64,000 nucleotides of DNA from an uncultured Oscillospiraceae bacterium (GCA_934526065.1 CAKSZX010000001.1:269594-333593); one strand, 5' to 3'; shown: positions 4,128 through 42,026, counted from the first letter of the stretch. A program made the numbers and translations. Notes: generated by a model from the sequence alone, not told the origin.

Positions 4128-4577
4128 ATGGCAGTTACAATAGAAAGCATGCTTGAAAGCCTTGAAGAAGTTTTGGAAGAAGGCGTAAGCGTGCCTCTCA
4201 GCGGCGGCAAGAGAATGGTTGATGTGGACGCCGCAAGGGATATAATAGACGATATAAGATTGAGTATGCCAAGCGAAATCGCCCAGGCAAAGGCCATTGT
4301 GCGGGACAGAGCACGGATTATAGCCAAGGCCAAAAGAGAGGCCGATGAGATGATTAAAACCGCCGAACAGCGTGCCAGAAGCCTTGTGGCAAGGGAGGAA
4401 ATTGTTCGCCGGGCAGAGAACAGGGCAAAAATCATAAACAGTGAGGCAACGCAAAAAGCCGTGCGGATGAGAACCACTGTTACAAAATATTGTGACGGCA
4501 TGCTTGCTCAAACACAGGACTTGATGCAGAAAAATTTCAACGAGATGAAAATTTTAAGAGATAATCTTAAAAAATAA
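4128..4577 (+). CDS. Hypothetical coiled-coil protein (no TM segment)
   Basis: 149-aa ORF with good coding appearance. Highly charged helical sequence with no family I can recognise. Confidence 0.4.
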   Translation: MAVTIESMLESLEEVLEEGVSVPLSGGKRMVDVDAARDIIDDIRLSMPSEIAQAKAIVRDRARIIAKAKREADEMIKTAEQRARSLVAREEIVRRAENRAKIINSEATQKAVRMRTTVTKYCDGMLAQTQDLMQKNFNEMKILRDNLKK

Positions 4578-4624
4578 TCACACACTTTTTAAAATTTGCG
4601 TAGAATATACCACAGGAGGCGATT

Positions 4625-4696
4625 GTGTTGAAGGTGGTATTGGTTAAAAGTCCGAAATTTTTGCGTGGTATTTTAAAATTGGTATTTAAAATCTAA
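4625..4696 (+). CDS. Candidate 23-aa small ORF (MLKVVLVKSPKFLRGILKLVFKI)
   Basis: Perfect AGGAGG at 4614-4619, 5 nt before a GTG start; the stop is followed closely by a rho-independent terminator at 4705-4730. Confidence 0.2.
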   Translation: MLKVVLVKSPKFLRGILKLVFKI

Positions 4697-9557: not shown

Positions 9558-10258
9558 TCGGTCTTTTGAAAGATTATATAGTTTTTACAGGTGCCAATGG
9601 TGCAGGCGGTGTCAAGGTCGATATTCCTGCCGACTTTTATGAGGAAATTGACGGATATATTTTTACCCCTACCGATAGCGGCTCATTATCTGTCGTTCGT
9701 GATCATAAGGATTGTGGCAATATTAGTCTTACATTTCAAAATGTAAACGGTGAATACGTCAATTCAAATGGTGTGACTGTATCAAATGGAGACGAACTTA
9801 AAGTAGGAGTAAGTGACTTCGGTTTTAAATATAACGTTGAACAAGAAGGTTATATAATCCCGGAAAATTATACGGTAACCGTATCGGGCTTAGGGGAGTA
9901 CATTTCTTCGCCGGATCAGATTACGGAAGAAATAAAGACAGAAGTTGACAATCAAATTTATCGGTATGTGGCCGAAAGAAGAAAACCCATAGATCATTTT
10001 CCGAATTTCAAAATAGTTGGTTACAAGTGGGCAACTCTTAAATCAAACGCCGTTTCACATAATTTAGCGGTTGAGAAAAATTTTTTGTGTGTTATGTGCG
10101 AAAATGATATGGATTATTCGACTTATAAGATTACGAAATATTTCAGCCCCACAATATTGCTATATGATGACGGAACATACAAGGTGGATGTTGGCACCGC
10201 GCACAATCTTGAGTGGTACCCTTTGGATAAATACGATTTAACCGATATAAACTTTTAA
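9530..10258 (+). CDS. Hypothetical protein (possible C-terminal part of a split lipoprotein gene)
   Basis: Overlaps the previous ORF by 28 nt in another frame. Repeated motif similarity (VSFEGYNGY vs VTVSGLGEY) suggests one ancestral gene. Confidence 0.35.
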   Translation: MEEAKTMDIIGLLKDYIVFTGANGAGGVKVDIPADFYEEIDGYIFTPTDSGSLSVVRDHKDCGNISLTFQNVNGEYVNSNGVTVSNGDELKVGVSDFGFKYNVEQEGYIIPENYTVTVSGLGEYISSPDQITEEIKTEVDNQIYRYVAERRKPIDHFPNFKIVGYKWATLKSNAVSHNLAVEKNFLCVMCENDMDYSTYKITKYFSPTILLYDDGTYKVDVGTAHNLEWYPLDKYDLTDINF

Positions 10259-14947: not shown

Positions 14948-15000
14948 AATAACAACAGCCCGGCATGCCGCCGGGCTGTAATTTTGTTTGATTTTAAATT

Positions 15001-16719
15001 TTATTTGCTTGCCAAGGCATTTACAGCCCGTTTTGCCGCCGCCGCAGCGTCGGCGGTGTAAATGTCCGCACCGATTTCATCGCAGTATTCCTGGGTTATA
15101 GGGGCGCCGCCAATCATAATTTTAACTTTATCTCTAATGCCTTTTTCTTTTGCAAGGGCAACAACTTTTTTCATTTCGTCCATTGTGGTGGTAAGCAGGG
15201 CGGAACAGCAAATAATATCGCAGTTTTCATTTATGGCGGTATCAACAAATGTTTCGGCGCTTACATCTGTGCCAAGGTCGATAACCGTCAAACCGCTGCC
15301 CTCCATCATAATTTTAACAAGGTTCTTGCCTATGTCGTGCATATCGCCTTTTACGGTGCCCATGCAAACTTTGCCGGCGGATTTACTCTCGCCTTTAACA
15401 AGCAAAGGCTTTAAAATTTCCGTTGCGGCGGTCATACATCTGGCGGCCATAAGCATCTCCGGCACAAAAACCTTGTTTGCGGAAAAATCGTTGCCAAGGC
15501 TTACCATACCGGCAACAAGGCCCTTTTGCAGTATTGTTTGCCGGTCGATATTTTCTTCTATGGCTTGGTTGCACAGCTTTAAAACACGGTTTTTCTGCCC
15601 TTTTTTAAGGGCGGCGGCAAGCTGAGTGAGGGTGTCGCCGGTTTCGCTTTCTCCGGCGACGGAGATTTCTTTTTTAACAACTGTCTTTTCCGCTTTAATG
15701 CGCCTGTGTTCTTCTTTTCTGAAATTCGGCGCATGGAGAACCCGGTTGTACCTGTCTATTTCATCATCTATAATCGGGTCAACCTGTTTGTAAACCGTGC
15801 CGGGCAATCCGTAGGTAATACATGGGATAAAATGACCCATTGGGCAATCCGCCCAAAGAACCTCTTTCATATACCGGCGGATTTCTTCCTCGGCGGCGTC
15901 GGCTCTGTCAATGCTTGCGCCCACTCCGCCCATTAAGGTAAGCTTGCCGTCCAGATGTGCCAAAAGCCGTGGAATATTATTTTCCGGCAGAACGCCCTGC
16001 CAAATCTGTATGCCTATTTCCGCCATATCGTCAACGATAGGGGCACAGTAAGAGTCCGCATGGTGGGCGGCTATCACCCCTTGCGAGCGAATATAACCGT
16101 AAAATTTCCTGTAAGGCTCTTTGAAAAATTCACGCCACATATCCTCTTTCATAAACAAGGCATCCTTTGCACCCCAGTCATCGTGAGAAAGTATTAAATC
16201 CGGGTGCAGGTTGTCTATAACAGTCTTTGCGTAGCTCATTCTGTACCGCAAAATGTAGTCGATAAGCCGGTGCATTTCCCGGGGGTGTTCGTAAAGGTTT
16301 GTCAAGGTGTCCTCAAAACCCATTAAAAAATGCAGTTGTTCAAATATGCCGGTGCCCATAACAACCGAAACCAATTTGCCCTCTTTGCGTATTTCCTCCC
16401 CTTTGGCAAGGCTTTCTTCCCAGCCTGTTTGGCAGTTTGCGGCAATGTCCGGGGCGTGTACCGTCTCTTTCCACTTTGTTATATCTTTCAAGGCCTTGTT
16501 TTCGGCTGTGATATGGGGCATTCTGCCCGGGGCGTCCTCCGGGTAAATAAATGTAACCCCGAATTTATCAACGGCAGTGCCGCCTTTTTTCAGCCCTATA
16601 TCCAAAAATTTACTTACGGGGGTGCCGTAAACAAAGCCCATTGCCTCATATTGTTTAAGCTGTCTTTCCGGCTTGCCGTCTTTTTTTATTGTTTCTCTCA
16701 ATATTTGTGCAGGTGTCAT
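15001..16719 (-). CDS. CmuA-like fusion: URO-D/MtaA-family methyltransferase domain plus B12-binding cap and cobalamin-binding domain
   Basis: 572 aa. The C-terminal ~200 aa carry the B12-binding_2 helical cap and DxHxxG (GDMHDIGKNLV), SALLTTT and MIGGAP motifs of a corrinoid Rossmann domain. The N-terminal ~340 aa is a TIM-barrel-like uroporphyrinogen-decarboxylase/MtaA-type methyltransferase with His/Cys-rich candidate Zn sites (HHADSYC, CPMGHFIPC). Confidence 0.65.
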   Translation of the reverse strand: MTPAQILRETIKKDGKPERQLKQYEAMGFVYGTPVSKFLDIGLKKGGTAVDKFGVTFIYPEDAPGRMPHITAENKALKDITKWKETVHAPDIAANCQTGWEESLAKGEEIRKEGKLVSVVMGTGIFEQLHFLMGFEDTLTNLYEHPREMHRLIDYILRYRMSYAKTVIDNLHPDLILSHDDWGAKDALFMKEDMWREFFKEPYRKFYGYIRSQGVIAAHHADSYCAPIVDDMAEIGIQIWQGVLPENNIPRLLAHLDGKLTLMGGVGASIDRADAAEEEIRRYMKEVLWADCPMGHFIPCITYGLPGTVYKQVDPIIDDEIDRYNRVLHAPNFRKEEHRRIKAEKTVVKKEISVAGESETGDTLTQLAAALKKGQKNRVLKLCNQAIEENIDRQTILQKGLVAGMVSLGNDFSANKVFVPEMLMAARCMTAATEILKPLLVKGESKSAGKVCMGTVKGDMHDIGKNLVKIMMEGSGLTVIDLGTDVSAETFVDTAINENCDIICCSALLTTTMDEMKKVVALAKEKGIRDKVKIMIGGAPITQEYCDEIGADIYTADAAAAAKRAVNALASK

Positions 16720-16729
16720 TTTAAATTCC

Positions 16730-17182
16730 TCACTTTACCAAAATACAGGCGGTAAAAGTCATTGTTTTTACCCCATAGTTATATTTAAGCCCATTTTTAA
16801 GGCATACATCTCCCACAAGCAGACCGTAGGCTTCCATAGACGGGAAAACTTTGCCGGGGAAACGACATGGTTTTGACGGATATGTGCATTTTTTGCATCT
16901 TGTACAGCCGCCGGCACCCATAGGCAGAATATCGCCGTAAATGCGCTTGGCTTGCCTTACAAGGGTGTCAAACCTCGATTTGTGTTTTGCCTCACAGCGC
17001 CTTATGGTTTCAAGGTCAAATTCATCATCCATTACCTCAACGGTTTGCACAACTATGCCGCCGCTGTAAGCCGCAGCTCTTTTGCTTATGTTTTCAAGGC
17101 TGCCTACCGCCGGGGGACAAGCCCAACTTCTGCCGTATTTGACGCACTTATCAGCCGAACACATATCCCTTACTTCCTGCAT
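16730..17182 (-). CDS. DUF2284-family predicted metal-binding protein
   Basis: 150 aa with the WACPP motif and a Cys cluster (GGCTRCKKCTYPSKPCRFP); immediately upstream of the methyltransferase-corrinoid gene on the same strand. Confidence 0.5.
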   Translation of the reverse strand: MQEVRDMCSADKCVKYGRSWACPPAVGSLENISKRAAAYSGGIVVQTVEVMDDEFDLETIRRCEAKHKSRFDTLVRQAKRIYGDILPMGAGGCTRCKKCTYPSKPCRFPGKVFPSMEAYGLLVGDVCLKNGLKYNYGVKTMTFTACILVK

Positions 17183-17347
17183 AAAAACAAGTGTATTTGT
17201 ATCCAGCGGAGCATAATGTTCAAAGCCTATTTCCCGGGCAAGTTCGTATATTTTTTCGGTAATTGTTCTTCACCGCCTTGACAAGGCGCAACCGCCTCGT
17301 GTATATTTAAAACATATTTTAGCTTATTATACGAAAGGCAAAAAATA

Positions 17348-18889
17348 ATGTCAAGAGCGGATATAGTTTACAGAGGAAAAACAATCGTCGTGTCTGCAAA
17401 AGAAGGTCGGAGTGTTTTGAAAATTTTGCAAGATCGGGGAATAAATATTCAAGCGCCTTGCGGCGGCAGAGGCACCTGCGGCAAATGTGCCGTTACTGTG
17501 GTGCAAAACGGCATGAGGAAAACCGTCTTGGCTTGCCAAACAAAAATTTTTGGTGATTGTACCGTTGAGGTGCCGGATTTTGTCGGCGGTAAAATAGAGG
17601 ATGAAATATCCGGCAATTTATTATTTCAACCCCAAAAAGGTTACGGTGTGGCCGTTGACATAGGAACAACATCAATTTCTTTGGCGGTGTATAATCTGGA
17701 AAACGGCCGGCTTGTAGGTAAAAATTCACGGTGGAACAGGCAAACCGCTTACGGTGGGGATGTTATTACAAGAATTAAATACACCATGGATAACCCTAAT
17801 GGGCTTGAAAGACTGACAACACTTGTGCAAAAGCAGATTTTTGATATGTCGGCGGAAATTTTGGATAAAAACAAAATTTCACATGATGATGTAACAAGCC
17901 TTGTGATAGCCGGTAACACTGTTATGGAACATATTTTTTCCGGGCTTGATCCCCGGTCTATGGCGGCAGCCCCCTATAAGCCGAAAACCCTGTTCCAAAC
18001 CGGCGAAAACATAACCTATTCGGAATTTAAAAATGCAAAAGTTTTTATTTTTCCCTGTGTGTCCGCCTTTGTGGGCGGCGATATAACAAGCGGTATTTAC
18101 ACTTTGGAAATTGCCGAAAGCCGTGTAAAAACCCTGTTTATAGACATAGGTACAAACGGCGAGATGGCATTGTGGAACGGCGAAAAATTTATATGCTGTT
18201 CTACCGCCACAGGCCCCGCTTTTGAAGGAGCCGGTATCGTTTGCGGTATGCCCGGTGTTGACGGCGCAATTTGCAAAGTAAAAATAAATGGGCCAGAGCT
18301 TGCCTTTGACACCGTGAACGGGAAGAATGCCGTTGGAATATGCGGTTCCGGCACCGTTGATGTAATCGCCCGGCTGCTGGAAAACGGAGTTATCGACTAT
18401 GGGGGAAGAATGTTAAACCCCCAAGAAGTTGAAAACCCGGTAAAAAAATATATGGGCGAGGACGAAAATGAAAACGGAATATTCTATCTTACCGAAGATA
18501 AAAAAGTGTTCTTCACTCGGGAAGATGTGAGAAAAATTCAACTTGCCAAAGCGGCAGTGGCAGCCGGAATAAAAACAGTTGTAAACAGCGCAAAACTCGG
18601 TTATAATGACATAGACAAGGTTATCATATCCGGGGGTTTCGGCAAAAATTTAAGTACCGAAAGCCTTTGCCGAATAGGTATGATACCGGCGGAATTTGCC
18701 GATAAAACACAGTACGCCGGCAACACGGCATTAAGCGGAGCGGCAAAAACTTTACTTTATCCCGGTAATAGACCGGAAGTAGGCAAGATAAAAAATATGT
18801 GCGAATATATCGAGTTATCCCAAAGTAAAGAATTTACGGAGGATTACATAGAGCAAATGGTATTTGAAAACAGCGAGGTGGATTTATAA
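17348..18889 (+). CDS. Corrinoid reductive activase (RACo type): N-terminal plant-type 2Fe-2S ferredoxin plus ASKHA/DUF4445 ATPase domain
   Basis: 513 aa. CGGRGTCGKCAV...C ferredoxin motif, then an acetate/sugar-kinase-Hsp70-actin-fold region (VDIGTTSISLAV..., FIDIGTNGEMAL). A TTGACA-18-TATATT promoter lies upstream. Confidence 0.75.
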   Translation: MSRADIVYRGKTIVVSAKEGRSVLKILQDRGINIQAPCGGRGTCGKCAVTVVQNGMRKTVLACQTKIFGDCTVEVPDFVGGKIEDEISGNLLFQPQKGYGVAVDIGTTSISLAVYNLENGRLVGKNSRWNRQTAYGGDVITRIKYTMDNPNGLERLTTLVQKQIFDMSAEILDKNKISHDDVTSLVIAGNTVMEHIFSGLDPRSMAAAPYKPKTLFQTGENITYSEFKNAKVFIFPCVSAFVGGDITSGIYTLEIAESRVKTLFIDIGTNGEMALWNGEKFICCSTATGPAFEGAGIVCGMPGVDGAICKVKINGPELAFDTVNGKNAVGICGSGTVDVIARLLENGVIDYGGRMLNPQEVENPVKKYMGEDENENGIFYLTEDKKVFFTREDVRKIQLAKAAVAAGIKTVVNSAKLGYNDIDKVIISGGFGKNLSTESLCRIGMIPAEFADKTQYAGNTALSGAAKTLLYPGNRPEVGKIKNMCEYIELSQSKEFTEDYIEQMVFENSEVDL

Positions 18890-20106
18890 TGGAATTACAT
18901 TACCCTTTGATATTGGACGGTTCAACCGGTACTCAACTGCAAAAAAGAGGCTATGACGGCGGCGTTTGTGCCGAGGCATGGTCGATAGATCACCCGGAGG
19001 TTGTACAGGATTTTCAAAAGGAATATTTACAGGCCGGCTCACAGGTTTTGTATTCCCCTACATTCGGTGCAAACAGGGTAAAACTTGAAGAAAACGGCAT
19101 TTTCAACAAAGTGTATGACTTTAACTATAAACTTGCCTCAATAAGCAAAAAAATTGCACAGGACAAAGCCTATGTTGCCGGGGATATTGCCCCAACCGGC
19201 AAATTTTTGGCTCCTTTGGGGGACACGCCCTTTGAAGAAATGGTTGAAATATACACCGAACAGGCCAAGGGCTTACAGGACGCCGGTGTTGACTTTTTTA
19301 TCATCGAAACAATGATGACTGTGCCGGAGGCCAGAGCCGCATTATTGGCTGTAAAAAGCGTAAGCGACAAACCTGTTTTCGTCACATTTTCGGTAGATGA
19401 AAAGGGCAATACCCTTACCGGCTCCGACATAGAGGCTGTTTTGGAGATTATGCAGGGCATGGGTGCCGACGCATTCGGCCTTAACTGTTCCGTAGGCCCT
19501 AAGGAAATGTTGGAATCTATAAAACGCCTTACAGACTATGCGGAAGTTCCTCTTATCGCAAAGGCAAATGCCGGCCTGCCCAAAGTTGTTGACGGTAAAA
19601 CCGTGTACGACTGCCCGCCGGAAACCTTTGCCGACTGTGTGCCGGGGCTTGCCCGGGCAGGGGTGCAGATATTCGGCGGTTGTTGCGGCACAATGGCAGA
19701 GCATGTAAAGGCCATAGCCGACGCCGTAAAAAATGTAAAACTTGTAAATCCCAACCCGAAATATACCGATTTACTTCCTCTTTGCACTGAAAAGAAGCTG
19801 TTTCTGTTGCCGAAAGATGTAAAACCCGGCAAGATTTTGCCATGTGATGAAAATTTGGGCGAGGCTTTGGAGGAAGCGGAAACAGACGATGAAAAGTTGA
19901 TCACAGTCCAAATACGCAGAGAGGACGAACTTGATAATTTTGCGGATTATCAATATGCAATATATAAGCCCCTTTGTCTTATGTGCGAGGACGAGAGTAT
20001 TCTTGAACAAGCGTTAAGGCTGTACCAAGGCAGGGCAATGTATGACGGCAATCTGCCGGAAGATTTCTTGCGGAAAATGGCAAAAAAATACGGTTTGATT
20101 TATTAA
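18889..20106 (+). CDS. Homocysteine S-methyltransferase-domain protein (MetH N-terminal Hcy-binding-domain homologue) with ~110-aa unknown C-terminal extension
   Basis: 405 aa. ILDGSTGTQLQ, TFGAN, GLNCSVGP and GGCCGT motifs contain the three Zn-ligand cysteines of the Pfam S-methyl_trans/MetH Hcy-binding barrel. Start overlaps the RACo stop (ATAATGG). Confidence 0.75.
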   Translation: MELHYPLILDGSTGTQLQKRGYDGGVCAEAWSIDHPEVVQDFQKEYLQAGSQVLYSPTFGANRVKLEENGIFNKVYDFNYKLASISKKIAQDKAYVAGDIAPTGKFLAPLGDTPFEEMVEIYTEQAKGLQDAGVDFFIIETMMTVPEARAALLAVKSVSDKPVFVTFSVDEKGNTLTGSDIEAVLEIMQGMGADAFGLNCSVGPKEMLESIKRLTDYAEVPLIAKANAGLPKVVDGKTVYDCPPETFADCVPGLARAGVQIFGGCCGTMAEHVKAIADAVKNVKLVNPNPKYTDLLPLCTEKKLFLLPKDVKPGKILPCDENLGEALEEAETDDEKLITVQIRREDELDNFADYQYAIYKPLCLMCEDESILEQALRLYQGRAMYDGNLPEDFLRKMAKKYGLIY

Positions 20107-20154: not shown

Positions 20155-20706
20155 TTGATATGTGAGGATTTTGACGACAACTTTTTTAACCGCAGGGTTG
20201 CGGCAAAAAAGCTGTTCAAACGGTACAACAAAACCGAGGACGAGGACACCGAGAAAATAGCCGAGATAATGAATAAGCTCTTTAAAAAAGTAGGCAAAAA
20301 TGTTTGGATAGAGCCGGATTTTCACTGCGAATCCGGCAAAAATATTGAGATAGAGGATGATGTTTACATAAACTTCGGCTGTATAATTCTCGACTGCGCC
20401 CGGTTTACAATCGGCAGAAATACATTGTTGGGGCCAAATATAGGTATTTATCGGGTAAACCACTCTCTTGATCGGGCGGAAAGAATAACCGGCGGCTGTA
20501 TTGGCAAACCCGTGCATATAGGTAAAAATGTGTGGCTCGGCGGAGATGTTAAAATTTTGGCCGGGGTTACGATCGGAGACGGCAGCGTTATCGGCGCAGG
20601 CAGTGTTGTTACAAAAGATATACCCCGGGGCGTAGTCGCCGCAGGCAATCCGTGCAAGGTATTGCGTAAAATAGACGAAAGAGATAAACTCGGGTACTTA
20701 AAATAA
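20155..20706 (+). CDS. Maltose/galactoside O-acetyltransferase-family hexapeptide-repeat acetyltransferase
   Basis: 183 aa; Maa-type N-terminal helix (NKLFKKVGKNVWIEPDFHC) and left-handed beta-helix repeats (IGKNVWLGGDVKILAGVTIGDGSVIGAGSVV). TTG start; no upstream ATG before the stop. Confidence 0.7.
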   Translation: MICEDFDDNFFNRRVAAKKLFKRYNKTEDEDTEKIAEIMNKLFKKVGKNVWIEPDFHCESGKNIEIEDDVYINFGCIILDCARFTIGRNTLLGPNIGIYRVNHSLDRAERITGGCIGKPVHIGKNVWLGGDVKILAGVTIGDGSVIGAGSVVTKDIPRGVVAAGNPCKVLRKIDERDKLGYLK

Positions 20707-20765
20707 AATAAAATAAAAAACAAACAGCTATTTATATTCGGCGAGTATAAATAGCTGTTATTAGT

Positions 20766-34888: not shown

Positions 34889-34975
34889 TGGTGCGGATAA
34901 CAAGACTTGAACTTGCACTGCATTTCTACAACTAGCCCCTCAAGCTAGCGCGTCTGCCTATTCCGCCATATCCGC
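34889..34975 (-). tRNA. tRNA-Leu (anticodon GAG), 87 nt including encoded CCA
   Basis: The reverse complement folds as a class II tRNA: acceptor GCGGATA/TATCCGC, anticodon stem CTAGC/GCTAG with loop TTGAGGG, long variable arm, T-arm GTTCAAGTC. Own TTGACA-17-TATCAT promoter at 35003-35031. Confidence 0.8.
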
Positions 34976-35229
34976 ATATTTATATGTTCCTGTGTGAGAA
35001 CAAGACATATGATACCACAAGAAATTATTTTTGTCAACTGCAATTTTACAAAACAAAAGATTTTTTGAATTGCTTGTTATCTGTTAAAGCATAGCGGTGA
35101 AAATCAACCTGATTTTAAATCTTTTGCCATTGAAAATTTTTAATAAATAAGTAATTTTATATCGTGAAATTTTCGGTGCTTTAAAATTCAAACAAAAATA
35201 AAACCGAGGAATTATCCTCGGTTTTACTG

Positions 35230-35316
35230 TGGTGCGGATAACAAGACTTGAACTTGCACTGCATTTCTACAACTAGCCCCTCAAGCTAGCGCGTCTGCCT
35301 ATTCCGCCATATCCGC
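35230..35316 (-). tRNA. tRNA-Leu (anticodon GAG), second identical copy
   Basis: Identical 87-nt sequence 341 bp downstream; own TTGACA-17-TATCAT promoter and a CCGAGGA-aattat-TCCTCGG hairpin. Confidence 0.8.
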
Positions 35317-41705: not shown

Positions 41706-41781
41706 TGGCTGGGGTACTAGGATTCGAACCTAGGGAATGCCAGAGTCAGAGTCTGGTGCCTTACCGCTTGGCGATACCCCA
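41706..41781 (-). tRNA. tRNA-Gln (anticodon CTG), 76 nt with encoded CCA
   Basis: Reverse complement TGGGGTATCGCCAAGCGGTAAGGCACCAGACTCTGACTCTGGCATTCCCTAGGTTCGAATCCTAGTACCCCAGCCA gives a cloverleaf with anticodon loop CTCTGAC. Confidence 0.8.
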
Positions 41782-41950
41782 ATGTTTAACGCCTAAATAT
41801 GATAACACAGAAATCGAATTTTGTAAAGCATTTTTTTACAAAATTTTGCAGCTGGGCAAAACGAAGACAATCGGCAGCCAAAATTTTGAAAAAAATTATT
41901 TTGCAGAAAAGGAAAGATAAAAACAAAGCCACGGCAAGTGCCGTGGCTTT

Positions 41951-42026
41951 TGGCTGGGGTACTAGGATTCGAACCTAGGGAATGCCAGAGTCAGAGTCTG
42001 GTGCCTTACCGCTTGGCGATACCCCA
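41951..42026 (-). tRNA. tRNA-Gln (anticodon CTG), second identical copy
   Basis: Identical 76-nt sequence 245 bp downstream; preceded by the same GCCACGGCA-(a/g)-TGCCGTGGC hairpin. Confidence 0.8.

Follow-up and report, generated by a model that had tools for sequence, protein, structure and literature searches.

An obligate gene pair encoding a UroD-fold::corrinoid fusion and a truncated MetH module as a candidate corrinoid-dependent homocysteine methyltransferase

A divergent module of four genes lies in the stretch of DNA analyzed here, a window of 64,000 nt from an uncultured Oscillospiraceae bacterium (GCA_934526065.1 CAKSZX010000001.1:269594-333593) in which positions are counted from the first letter. 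The module encodes a 572-amino-acid (aa) fusion of a UroD-like barrel with a corrinoid domain, a DUF2284 protein, a RACo-type activase, and a 405-aa homocysteine (Hcy)-binding protein (Table 1). We put the chances at about even that it constitutes a self-contained corrinoid-dependent homocysteine methyltransferase, i.e., a non-canonical methionine synthase, using a methyl donor that is not pterin-bound and is probably an O-methyl compound. This proposal starts from observed features of the proteins and loci, namely domain identities, folds, ligand conservation, an obligate and co-inherited gene pair, and no pterin-binding partner nearby. An earlier note, made from the sequence alone, had described the four genes as arranged divergently around a short shared control region, and all four open reading frames (ORFs) were recovered at exactly its coordinates and on its strands. 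The Pfam families it had suggested searching for (URO-D, B12-binding_2, B12-binding, S-methyl_trans, the RACo domains, and DUF2284) were all matched, with assignments for all four proteins exceeding the curated cut-offs. None of the four proteins reached an NCBIfam equivalog cut-off.

Among species-representative genomes, 567 matches were confirmed by tblastn, and the best 80 of these 567 were fetched as loci. The locus comparison covered 85 loci, and pairing was scored where the contig reached far enough. Both protein families are conserved in length, with 2292 matches of 404 to 408 aa for the Hcy protein and 2207 of about 571 aa for the fusion. Carriers came from gut and rumen samples and were mostly Oscillospiraceae (Ca. 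Limivicinus, Lawsonibacter, and Scatomorpha), with further carriers in the Acutalibacteraceae, the Anaerovoracaceae (including the cultured Mogibacterium kristiansenii), and Solobacterium/Bulleidia. The earlier note had proposed examining whether the gene neighborhood is conserved. Contig reach permitting, the gene for the fusion and that for the tailed Hcy protein were divergently adjacent in all 85 loci, while the genes flanking the module were unrelated between lineages. The RACo gene was absent from the cluster in about 16 of the 85 loci, spread over several separate clades, and the DUF2284 gene in about 7. Of the four proteins, the fusion and the Hcy protein make up the obligate pair, to which RACo and DUF2284 are accessory components. 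Furthermore, the distance matrices of the fusion and the Hcy protein were strongly correlated (Mantel r = 0.91, p <= 0.001, 67 loci). Chance adjacency or an assembly artefact was ruled out by this correlation together with the 85 loci, which come from independent assemblies. Given such a tight, co-evolving pairing, methyl transfer from the corrinoid to homocysteine is the natural reading.

The 405-aa protein had been taken for a Zn-dependent homocysteine-binding barrel, and this identification held. Its S-methyl_trans match reached 242 bits, and the motifs previously named (ILDGSTGTQLQ, GLNC, and GGCCGT) were all present. The Cys triad that would bind zinc, C200/C265/C266, was kept in 119 of 119 family members, as were D10, E140, and T141 of the LDG and ET motifs common to MetH and BHMT, residues which we take to correspond to those contacting the amino-acid moiety of homocysteine. 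In a phmmer search of the PDB, the top match was the MetH(1-566) fragment of Thermotoga maritima (Tm), which comprises the Hcy and folate (Fol) barrels (E=3e-58). The alignment spanned residues 7 to 402 of the query and reached Tm MetH residues ~300-431, i.e., it continued beyond the Hcy barrel. Sequence identity was 32% to Tm MetH (Foldseek TMq 0.86) versus 20 to 25% to MmuM/BHMT (TMq ~0.57).

The part following the barrel, described earlier as an uncharacterised tail of ~110 aa, turned out to be half of a MetH folate barrel, as judged by the alignment, the predicted fold, and a tail-only profile. Residues 281-405 matched no Pfam family. In an AlphaFold2 (AF2) model of the whole protein (pLDDT 93.3, pTM 0.92), the tail forms a linker followed by four β-α units. 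Foldseek gave TMq values of 0.85 to 0.88 to the two-barrel MetH modules 3bof, 8ssc, 9cbr, and 9ssp, compared to 0.53 to 0.61 to the single-barrel MmuM and BHMT; about 115 residues of the tail therefore superpose on the MetH folate barrel. With the tail-only profile, MetH of T. maritima was matched in its Fol barrel (residues 381-431, E=0.007) and MeTr at a weak level (E=0.6). A complete pterin-binding (βα)8 barrel was not found, with no PF00809 match and only the linker and (βα)4 present. The Asp that contacts the pterin ('PL-S-L-D' / 'C-L-D-S') aligns with the variable position 365 (V/L/R) of the tail, and the pterin-contacting Asn of 'I-N-S' aligns with E/D386. Other positions of the tail are invariant (P361-L362-C363, D368, R377, Q380-G381-R382, Y385, and G387). 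We conclude that the tail is a vestigial half folate barrel, which has lost the canonical pterin site and is under selection, and that the 405-aa protein represents the N-terminal module of a MetH in truncated form. The probable role of the half barrel is that of a structural buttress or a docking surface. We also considered whether C319, C363, and C366 form a second metal site in the tail and rejected this, as these cysteines do not co-vary and only C363 is ~99% conserved. One variant of 603 aa (P0002; L005 8539-10350) has its S-methyl_trans barrel partly duplicated between barrel and tail, with two Pfam stretches totalling 403 bits, which could be a genuine tandem duplication or could stem from the assembly. 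It does not contain a fuller Fol domain, the extra segment being an internal partial duplication of the Hcy barrel.

The 572-aa fusion had been likened to CmuA, with a complete B12-binding cap and Rossmann domain at its C terminus, and both the domain order and the motifs bear this out. B12-binding_2 matched residues 365-437 (64.9 bits) and B12-binding residues 450-559 (92.8 bits), with the corrinoid motifs DMHDIG at 459, SAL at 506, and GG at 537. The order URO-D, B12-binding_2, B12-binding was kept in all 63 aligned fusion homologues and in the fusion matches listed. The best NCBIfam matches of the corrinoid half were MtgC, pyl_corrinoid, and MtbC (173 to 196 bits), versus 134 bits for MetH, suggesting a corrinoid domain of methylotrophic rather than MetH type. 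No gene for a second Hcy barrel or B12 domain was found in the 85 loci or the window, which makes the fused B12 domain the only corrinoid carrier nearby.

The N-terminal half of the fusion belongs to the UroD superfamily at the fold level. Pfam URO-D matched residues 52-321 with 41 bits, and the model of this domain alone (pLDDT 84.6, pTM 0.83) shows a (βα)8 barrel of UroD/MtaA type. Its identity to any solved relative was 13 to 16% (13 to 14% to MtaA), and the matches to solved UroD-superfamily enzymes were so marginal (E about 0.25-1.7) that we discarded a placement among them at the sequence level. His/Cys metal sites had been assigned to this domain, which was not borne out: no Cys within residues 1-350 was invariant across 64 family members, and the sole reproducibly aligned segment places H220-A-D222 opposite the zinc motif H-I-C of MtaA. 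Across 68 full-length relatives, H220 was 97% and D180-D181 95 to 97% conserved, while at position 222 there was a Cys in 39 of them (xHxCG, as in MtaA) and an Asp in 27. H-H-x-D was shared by the closest relatives, without exception, and by each fusion examined. C300 was rejected as a third zinc ligand since it alternates with Ser (45 versus 19 of 64). From the patterns at position 222 and C300, the domain falls in a carboxylate-shifted sub-clade of a thiol-type lineage, and its candidate metal site appears to be of His/Asp type. In the UroD superfamily, O-methyltransferases are reportedly set apart from S-methyltransferases by a carboxylate or a non-ligand in place of the Cys ligands (PMC10418091), and zinc is dispensable for some enzymes of the methyltransferase I (MT-I) class (PMC13222342). 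A His/Asp site would weaken the case for a methylthiol donor and favor O-methyl or other hard-ligand donors.

A profile search for the wider UroD-like family returned 4772 representatives at E<=1e-3, including many stand-alone proteins of 320 to 350 aa and one reversed fusion. The latter (613 aa; L088 3169-10801, Logan SRR10277274) has B12-binding_2 and B12-binding at its N terminus and an HHxD UroD-like barrel at its C terminus. It adjoins five genes with CbiA/GATase_3, Oxidored_nitro, Mur_ligase_M/CfbE_C, CbiX, and Fer4_NifH domains, which resemble a coenzyme F430 biosynthesis cluster (cfbABCDE), so that this contig presumably derives from a methanogen. Two close stand-alone relatives (L086 8001-9005, 334 aa, HHSDS; L089 8001-9050, 349 aa, FHSCG) had glycolytic or regulatory neighbors; genes for a corrinoid protein, RACo, or an Hcy protein were absent within 8 kb. 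These proteins might work on the fusion's corrinoid domain in trans; alternatively, they might have no corrinoid-dependent function at all. With no corrinoid or Hcy genes nearby, the surroundings of the stand-alone and reversed-fusion relatives were uninformative on the donor.

The 513-aa protein had been read as an activator combining a 2Fe-2S ferredoxin with an ASKHA ATPase, and three RACo-type Pfam domains above cut-off agree with this: Fer2 (PF00111, 32.8 bits), Raco_middle (PF17651, 164.5 bits), and RACo_C_ter (PF14574, 239 bits). The N-terminal 2Fe-2S ferredoxin domain has Cys38/44/47/63, and an AcsV-like NCBIfam model was matched at 344 bits, under its equivalog cut-off. By its ferredoxin, middle, and ASKHA ATPase domains, the protein would be a RACo/RamA-type ATP-dependent reductive activator of corrinoid enzymes. 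The Cys-rich DUF2284 protein, which the note had placed in the same orientation as the fusion, was likewise recovered on the minus strand (145 bits); it would be an accessory, predicted metal-binding protein, possibly with an Fe-S cluster. The frame of its gene runs 29 codons upstream of the ATG at 17182 to a TGA (17183-17272, - strand). This upstream in-frame segment, RTITEKIYELAREIGFEHYAPLDTNTLVF, aligns with the conserved N terminus of homologues of 175 to 188 aa and contains no ATG, GTG, or TTG codon. As a conserved N-terminal segment continues in frame, the true start probably lies upstream of the ATG, at a non-canonical ATT near 17261-17263; the alternative is an N-truncated product. One conserved Cys is also lost from the window copy, which reads CPPAVG in place of the CPPxCG present in at least 90% of homologues.

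According to the earlier note, the module has no pterin-binding partner. This agreed with a Pfam census that took in five genes to either side of the module, 408 ORFs (123 + 137 + 148) from up to 82 loci, in which no recurrent Pterin_bind, MtrH, or MTHFR family was found; metF was never adjacent to the module. There was no pterin-binding subunit among 25 listed of the 59 Pfam families found in the 64-kb window, and, as far as these 25 families show, the window contained no unexplained ORF of MetH or MetE size; the rest of it carries cell-division, sporulation, and housekeeping genes. The search for a conserved neighbor that would reveal the donor or acceptor failed, since the flanks consist of unrelated housekeeping genes besides a clade-specific fchA-folD(-MTHFS) group, which is taken up below. 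Riboswitch or T-box control of the module was likewise rejected. No Rfam family was found in the control region 17183-17347 (at the gathering threshold and at E<=1), and no S-box, T-box, or cobalamin riboswitch at the window module and 17 further loci.

If the module works as we propose, RACo would draw on ATP and its 2Fe-2S domain to return the fusion's corrinoid from inactive Co(II) to Co(I). The UroD-fold barrel, a non-pterin barrel, would bind the methyl donor at its His/Asp-type site (H220, D222, D180, D181, and E127) rather than at a His/Cys/Cys site, and Co(I) would take the methyl group to give CH3-Co(III). The tethered cap and Rossmann module would then swing onto the Zn barrel (C200/C265/C266) of the 405-aa protein, where the homocysteine thiolate would accept the methyl group to form methionine. 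In this scheme methyl transfer would run toward methionine, and the module would be independent of tetrahydrofolate (THF). A donor that is not pterin-bound is favored because the pterin barrel was not preserved but degraded, because the corrinoid half is of methylotrophic type, because the ligand switch runs from Cys to Asp, and because the THF-side methyltransferase II (MT-II) enzymes characterized in bacteria are pterin-barrel proteins and not of UroD type (PMC13222342). The most likely donor class would be an O-methyl compound, e.g., a methoxylated plant phenolic or methanol. The fully specified version, a B12-dependent, folate-independent methionine synthase fed by diet-derived O-methyl compounds through a new His/Asp-type UroD-fold methyltransferase, is a tentative and somewhat doubtful proposal.

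Several observations weigh against a methionine synthase with a donor of this kind. With the UroD-like domain so distant from solved relatives, the donor does not appear to be readable from sequence. Invariant charged residues (Arg, Lys, His, Asp, and Glu) are abundant on the active-site face of the domain, in contrast to the hydrophobic pocket typical of MT-I enzymes acting on aryl methyl ethers or haloalkanes; CdmB, for instance, has an aromatic cavity (PMC13222342). The stand-alone UroD-like relatives lie away from corrinoid genes, and the chemistry of the subfamily is not certain. None of the 18 modules scanned has an S-adenosylmethionine (SAM) or T-box riboswitch, i.e., the regulatory signature of methionine biosynthesis is absent. 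Finally, the sole recurring neighbors of the module were folate genes, fchA (FTCD_C, 8 ORFs) and folD (7), followed by a 5-formyl-THF cyclo-ligase gene. In 8 of ~70 loci, those of the Ca. Limivicinus clade (L001 11234-13275, with equivalents in L014, L019-L023, and L025), this group immediately follows the Hcy gene in the same orientation, with gaps of 11 to 19 nt or overlaps. The RACo-Hcy-fchA-folD-cyclo-ligase stretch of these genomes looks like one operon, and it points to a folate link of the module.

It could therefore be argued, in line with this operon, that the module is a housekeeping methyl-THF-dependent B12 methionine synthase, in which the UroD-like barrel took over the folate binding and methyl loading of the lost MetH Fol barrel. 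MetE is a UroD-superfamily barrel that binds methyl-THF, and the invariant charged residues of the active-site face could bind the pterin or its glutamate tail. The 567 confirmed matches also come from non-methylotrophic gut fermenters, a breadth that fits a housekeeping function. Nevertheless, we regard this alternative as unlikely. The linkage to folate genes is limited to one clade, metF was adjacent in no locus examined, S-box and T-box elements were absent at all modules scanned, and the corrinoid half is of methylotrophic and not of MetH type. Such an origin would also be unparsimonious, requiring that a working Fol barrel was lost and folate binding rebuilt elsewhere while a degenerate half barrel was retained. 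The known THF-side enzymes of bacteria are, as mentioned, pterin barrels, and none of the characterized UroD-superfamily enzymes that methylate a corrinoid is known to use THF.

Methyl transfer to and from corrinoids can run in either direction, and enzymes of the MtsA type demethylate thioethers (cited in PMC10418091). The module could accordingly operate in reverse, with the Hcy barrel stripping the S-methyl group from methionine or a related donor onto the corrinoid and the UroD-like barrel passing it on, which would amount to methyl-group scavenging or methionine catabolism in amino-acid fermenters. Carriers do include asaccharolytic amino-acid fermenters (Mogibacterium, Anaerovoracaceae), the missing methionine-repression riboswitch would fit, and the downstream folate one-carbon (C1) genes of one clade could oxidize the methyl group if THF were the acceptor. 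The Hcy half-reaction of MetH, however, strongly favors methionine formation, the Hcy barrel retains every feature of the methionine-forming MetH module, and neither an acceptor-side enzyme nor a C1-oxidation pathway is consistently linked to the module, which makes this direction quite improbable. It is more improbable still that the PF02574 barrel methylates another thiol (sulfide, cysteine, or a mercapto-acid) in methyl disposal or thiol methylation: acceptors among PF02574 enzymes range over various thiols or selenols, a coupling of O-demethylation to sulfide methylation is known from Holophaga-type physiology, and the NCBIfam equivalog cut-offs of MetH, BHMT, and YitJ were not reached, but the universally conserved D10, E140, and T141 fit the MetH/BHMT motifs and the nearest relatives by both sequence and structure are MetH Hcy modules.

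Table 1. Features of the module and its surroundings in the 64,000-nt window
Feature	Position	Strand	Description
Predicted intrinsic terminator	14955-14979	bidirectional	G+C-rich hairpin with T-runs; 10-11 pairs, 8 G-C (terminator scan)
Fusion gene	15001-16719	-	572 aa; URO-D + B12-binding_2 + B12-binding (Pfam)
Corrinoid module of fusion	15001-15654	-	aa ~356-572 + stop; B12-binding cap (4-helix bundle) + Rossmann, His-on type
UroD-superfamily TIM barrel of fusion (MtaA/UroD fold), presumed MT-I	15685-16719	-	aa 1-345; H219-H220-A-D222 + H179-D180-D181-W182 active-site face
DUF2284 gene	16730-17182	-	150 aa from ATG; DUF2284 145 bits (Pfam)
Divergent control region	17183-17347		no strand; two near-consensus sigma-70-type promoter matches (consensus scan)
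RACo activase gene	17348-18889	+	513 aa; Fer2 + Raco_middle + RACo_C_ter (Pfam)
Hcy-protein gene	18889-20106	+	405 aa; S-methyl_trans 242 bits, residues 7-280 (Pfam)
Hcy-binding TIM barrel, MetH-type, Zn-dependent	18889-19743	+	aa 1-285; Zn ligands C200, C265, C266
Tail of Hcy protein	19744-20106	+	aa 286-405 + stop; inter-barrel linker + first (βα)4 half of MetH/MeTr-type folate barrel
Mac/hexapeptide-repeat acetyltransferase gene	20155-20706	+	begins 48 nt past Hcy gene

Within the module, the RACo and Hcy genes overlap by 1 nt and the DUF2284 and fusion genes are spaced by 10 nt, suggesting two divergent two-gene operons. A consensus scan of the control region found a sigma-70-type match of 11/12 on the plus strand (17278-17307) and one of 12/12 on the minus strand (17354-17326). 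The two matches are oriented face-to-face and not back-to-back, an arrangement in which the 5' ends of the divergent transcripts would overlap and transcription from one promoter could interfere with that from the other. The -35 box of the minus-strand match overlaps the RACo start codon. The hairpin at 14955-14979 is likely to terminate the DUF2284-fusion transcript; matches to small RNA (sRNA)-like Rfam families at this position were weak and under threshold. No terminator was found between the Hcy gene and the acetyltransferase gene, the next hairpin being at 20723-20759, and the latter gene may be co-transcribed with the module in the source organism. Its position beside the module was not conserved in other loci. 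In one other locus (L062), a purine riboswitch (9892-9997, +) lies directly 3' of the fusion gene, before two ORFs, and a skipping-rope sRNA (4544-4629, -) just past the Hcy gene; by Rfam, neither was conserved at the module in other loci. Elsewhere in the window, Rfam identified two pairs of tRNA genes on the minus strand (34892-35316 and 41709-42026). Scores are equal within each pair (52.6/52.6 and 59.1/59.1 bits) and the paired genes are spaced by ~245-340 nt, giving them the appearance of tandem duplicates.

Annotation pipelines currently label the 405-aa protein '5-methyltetrahydrofolate--homocysteine methyltransferase' and the fusion 'corrinoid protein of di/trimethylamine methyltransferase'. 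As a result of these labels, many gut and rumen Clostridia have probably been credited in metabolic reconstructions with a canonical MetH where there is none. If the donor is indeed a non-folate compound, the module would be a fifth design of methionine synthase beside MetH, MetE, core-MetE/Mes, and split MetH/Mtg, and it would tie the methionine and SAM supply of abundant gut taxa to the availability of cobamide/B12 and of dietary methyl (methoxy) donors. In evolutionary terms, a MetH N-terminal module would have lost half of its folate barrel, with the stump kept under selection, while a corrinoid domain of the methylotroph type was fused to a thiol-type UroD barrel whose Cys ligand changed to Asp. 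The cultured carrier M. kristiansenii makes the question directly testable.

The combination had been suspected of not being a characterized system, and in the literature searched we indeed found no account of a UroD-fold::corrinoid fusion that works alongside a truncated MetH module. Its single elements have precedents. Methyltransferase::corrinoid fusions are already known (CmuA; MtsD/F/H), as are folate-independent methionine synthases with MetE-type barrels (PMC7857596). With canonical MetH, the module shares the Zn homocysteine barrel and its Cys3 triad, but here the B12 domains reside on the other protein, fused to the UroD-like barrel, and RACo is present instead of an AdoMet reactivation domain (no PF02965 match). 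The TIGR02082 metH equivalog cut-off of 1010 bits was not approached (196 and 134 bits). The split MetH or MtgBCDE system of Phaeobacter inhibens and Ruegeria pomeroyi (PMC12478193; GapMind preprint 10.1101/741918) resembles the module more closely, in that a stand-alone Zn Hcy subunit (MtgE) takes the methyl group from a separate corrinoid carrier and a RamA/RACo-type ATP-dependent activase performs the reactivation in place of the MetH AdoMet domain. A stand-alone Hcy module with a separate corrinoid protein and a RamA-type activase is therefore not new. The shared corrinoid protein of that system is also loaded by a non-THF methyltransferase, MtgB (PMC12478193). Mtg, however, keeps the pterin-binding subunit MtgD, for which no counterpart was found near the present module in the 85 loci or the window. 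It has a free-standing corrinoid protein, an MttB-superfamily non-THF MT-I, and the accessory DUF1638, whereas in the present module the corrinoid domain is fused to a UroD-fold barrel, the Hcy subunit is extended by half a Fol barrel in vestigial form, and DUF2284 takes the accessory role.

On the donor side, the fusion resembles CmuA of Methylobacterium/Hyphomicrobium in its domain order, with an N-terminal UroD-superfamily MT-I and a C-terminal corrinoid domain on a single chain that loads its own cofactor. CmuA, a chloromethane:corrinoid methyltransferase reported as an early-diverging branch of the superfamily (PMC13222342), passes its methyl group to the THF methyltransferase CmuB, while the partner here is a MetH-type Hcy barrel; a CmuB/MtrH-like partner was not found among the 408 flanking ORFs, which held no MtrH or pterin family. 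MtsD/MtsF/MtsH, MtaA/MtbA/MtsA (Methanosarcina), and the bacterial Mlps, the latter >25% identical to the coenzyme M methyltransferases (PMC10418091), have a His-Cys-Cys zinc site and thiol or selenol substrates, in contrast to the H-x-D, the lack of a conserved Cys, and the low identity to MtaA of the present domain. Type 1 mlp clusters contain separate Mlps and a corrinoid protein and no THF methyltransferase; a PF02574 protein is not mentioned for them (PMC10418091). MtvABC, OdmABCD/VdmB, MtoABCD, and CdmBCA also combine a UroD-superfamily MT-I having non-Cys or carboxylate ligands, or no zinc, with a RACo-type activase and a corrinoid protein. In having a carboxylate at the H-x-C position, the UroD-like domain agrees with descriptions of the O-demethylase MT-I enzymes, and it had no NCBIfam or PDB match to enzymes of the MtvB/OdmB/VdmB/MtoB type. 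Unlike the present module, these O-demethylase and haloalkane systems keep MT-I and corrinoid protein separate and use a pterin-barrel MT-II that transfers to THF or tetrahydromethanopterin (H4MPT). In concept, the proposed reaction resembles that of core-MetE/MesA-D (PMC7857596, PMC7005905), which converts homocysteine to methionine with a methyl group that comes from a methyl-corrinoid protein and not straight from methyl-folate. There, homocysteine is bound by a MetE-type Zn barrel of the UroD clan. The present module has no such barrel with a His-Cys-Glu-Cys zinc site; homocysteine would instead be bound by the PF02574 barrel, and the UroD-clan barrel would stand on the donor side.

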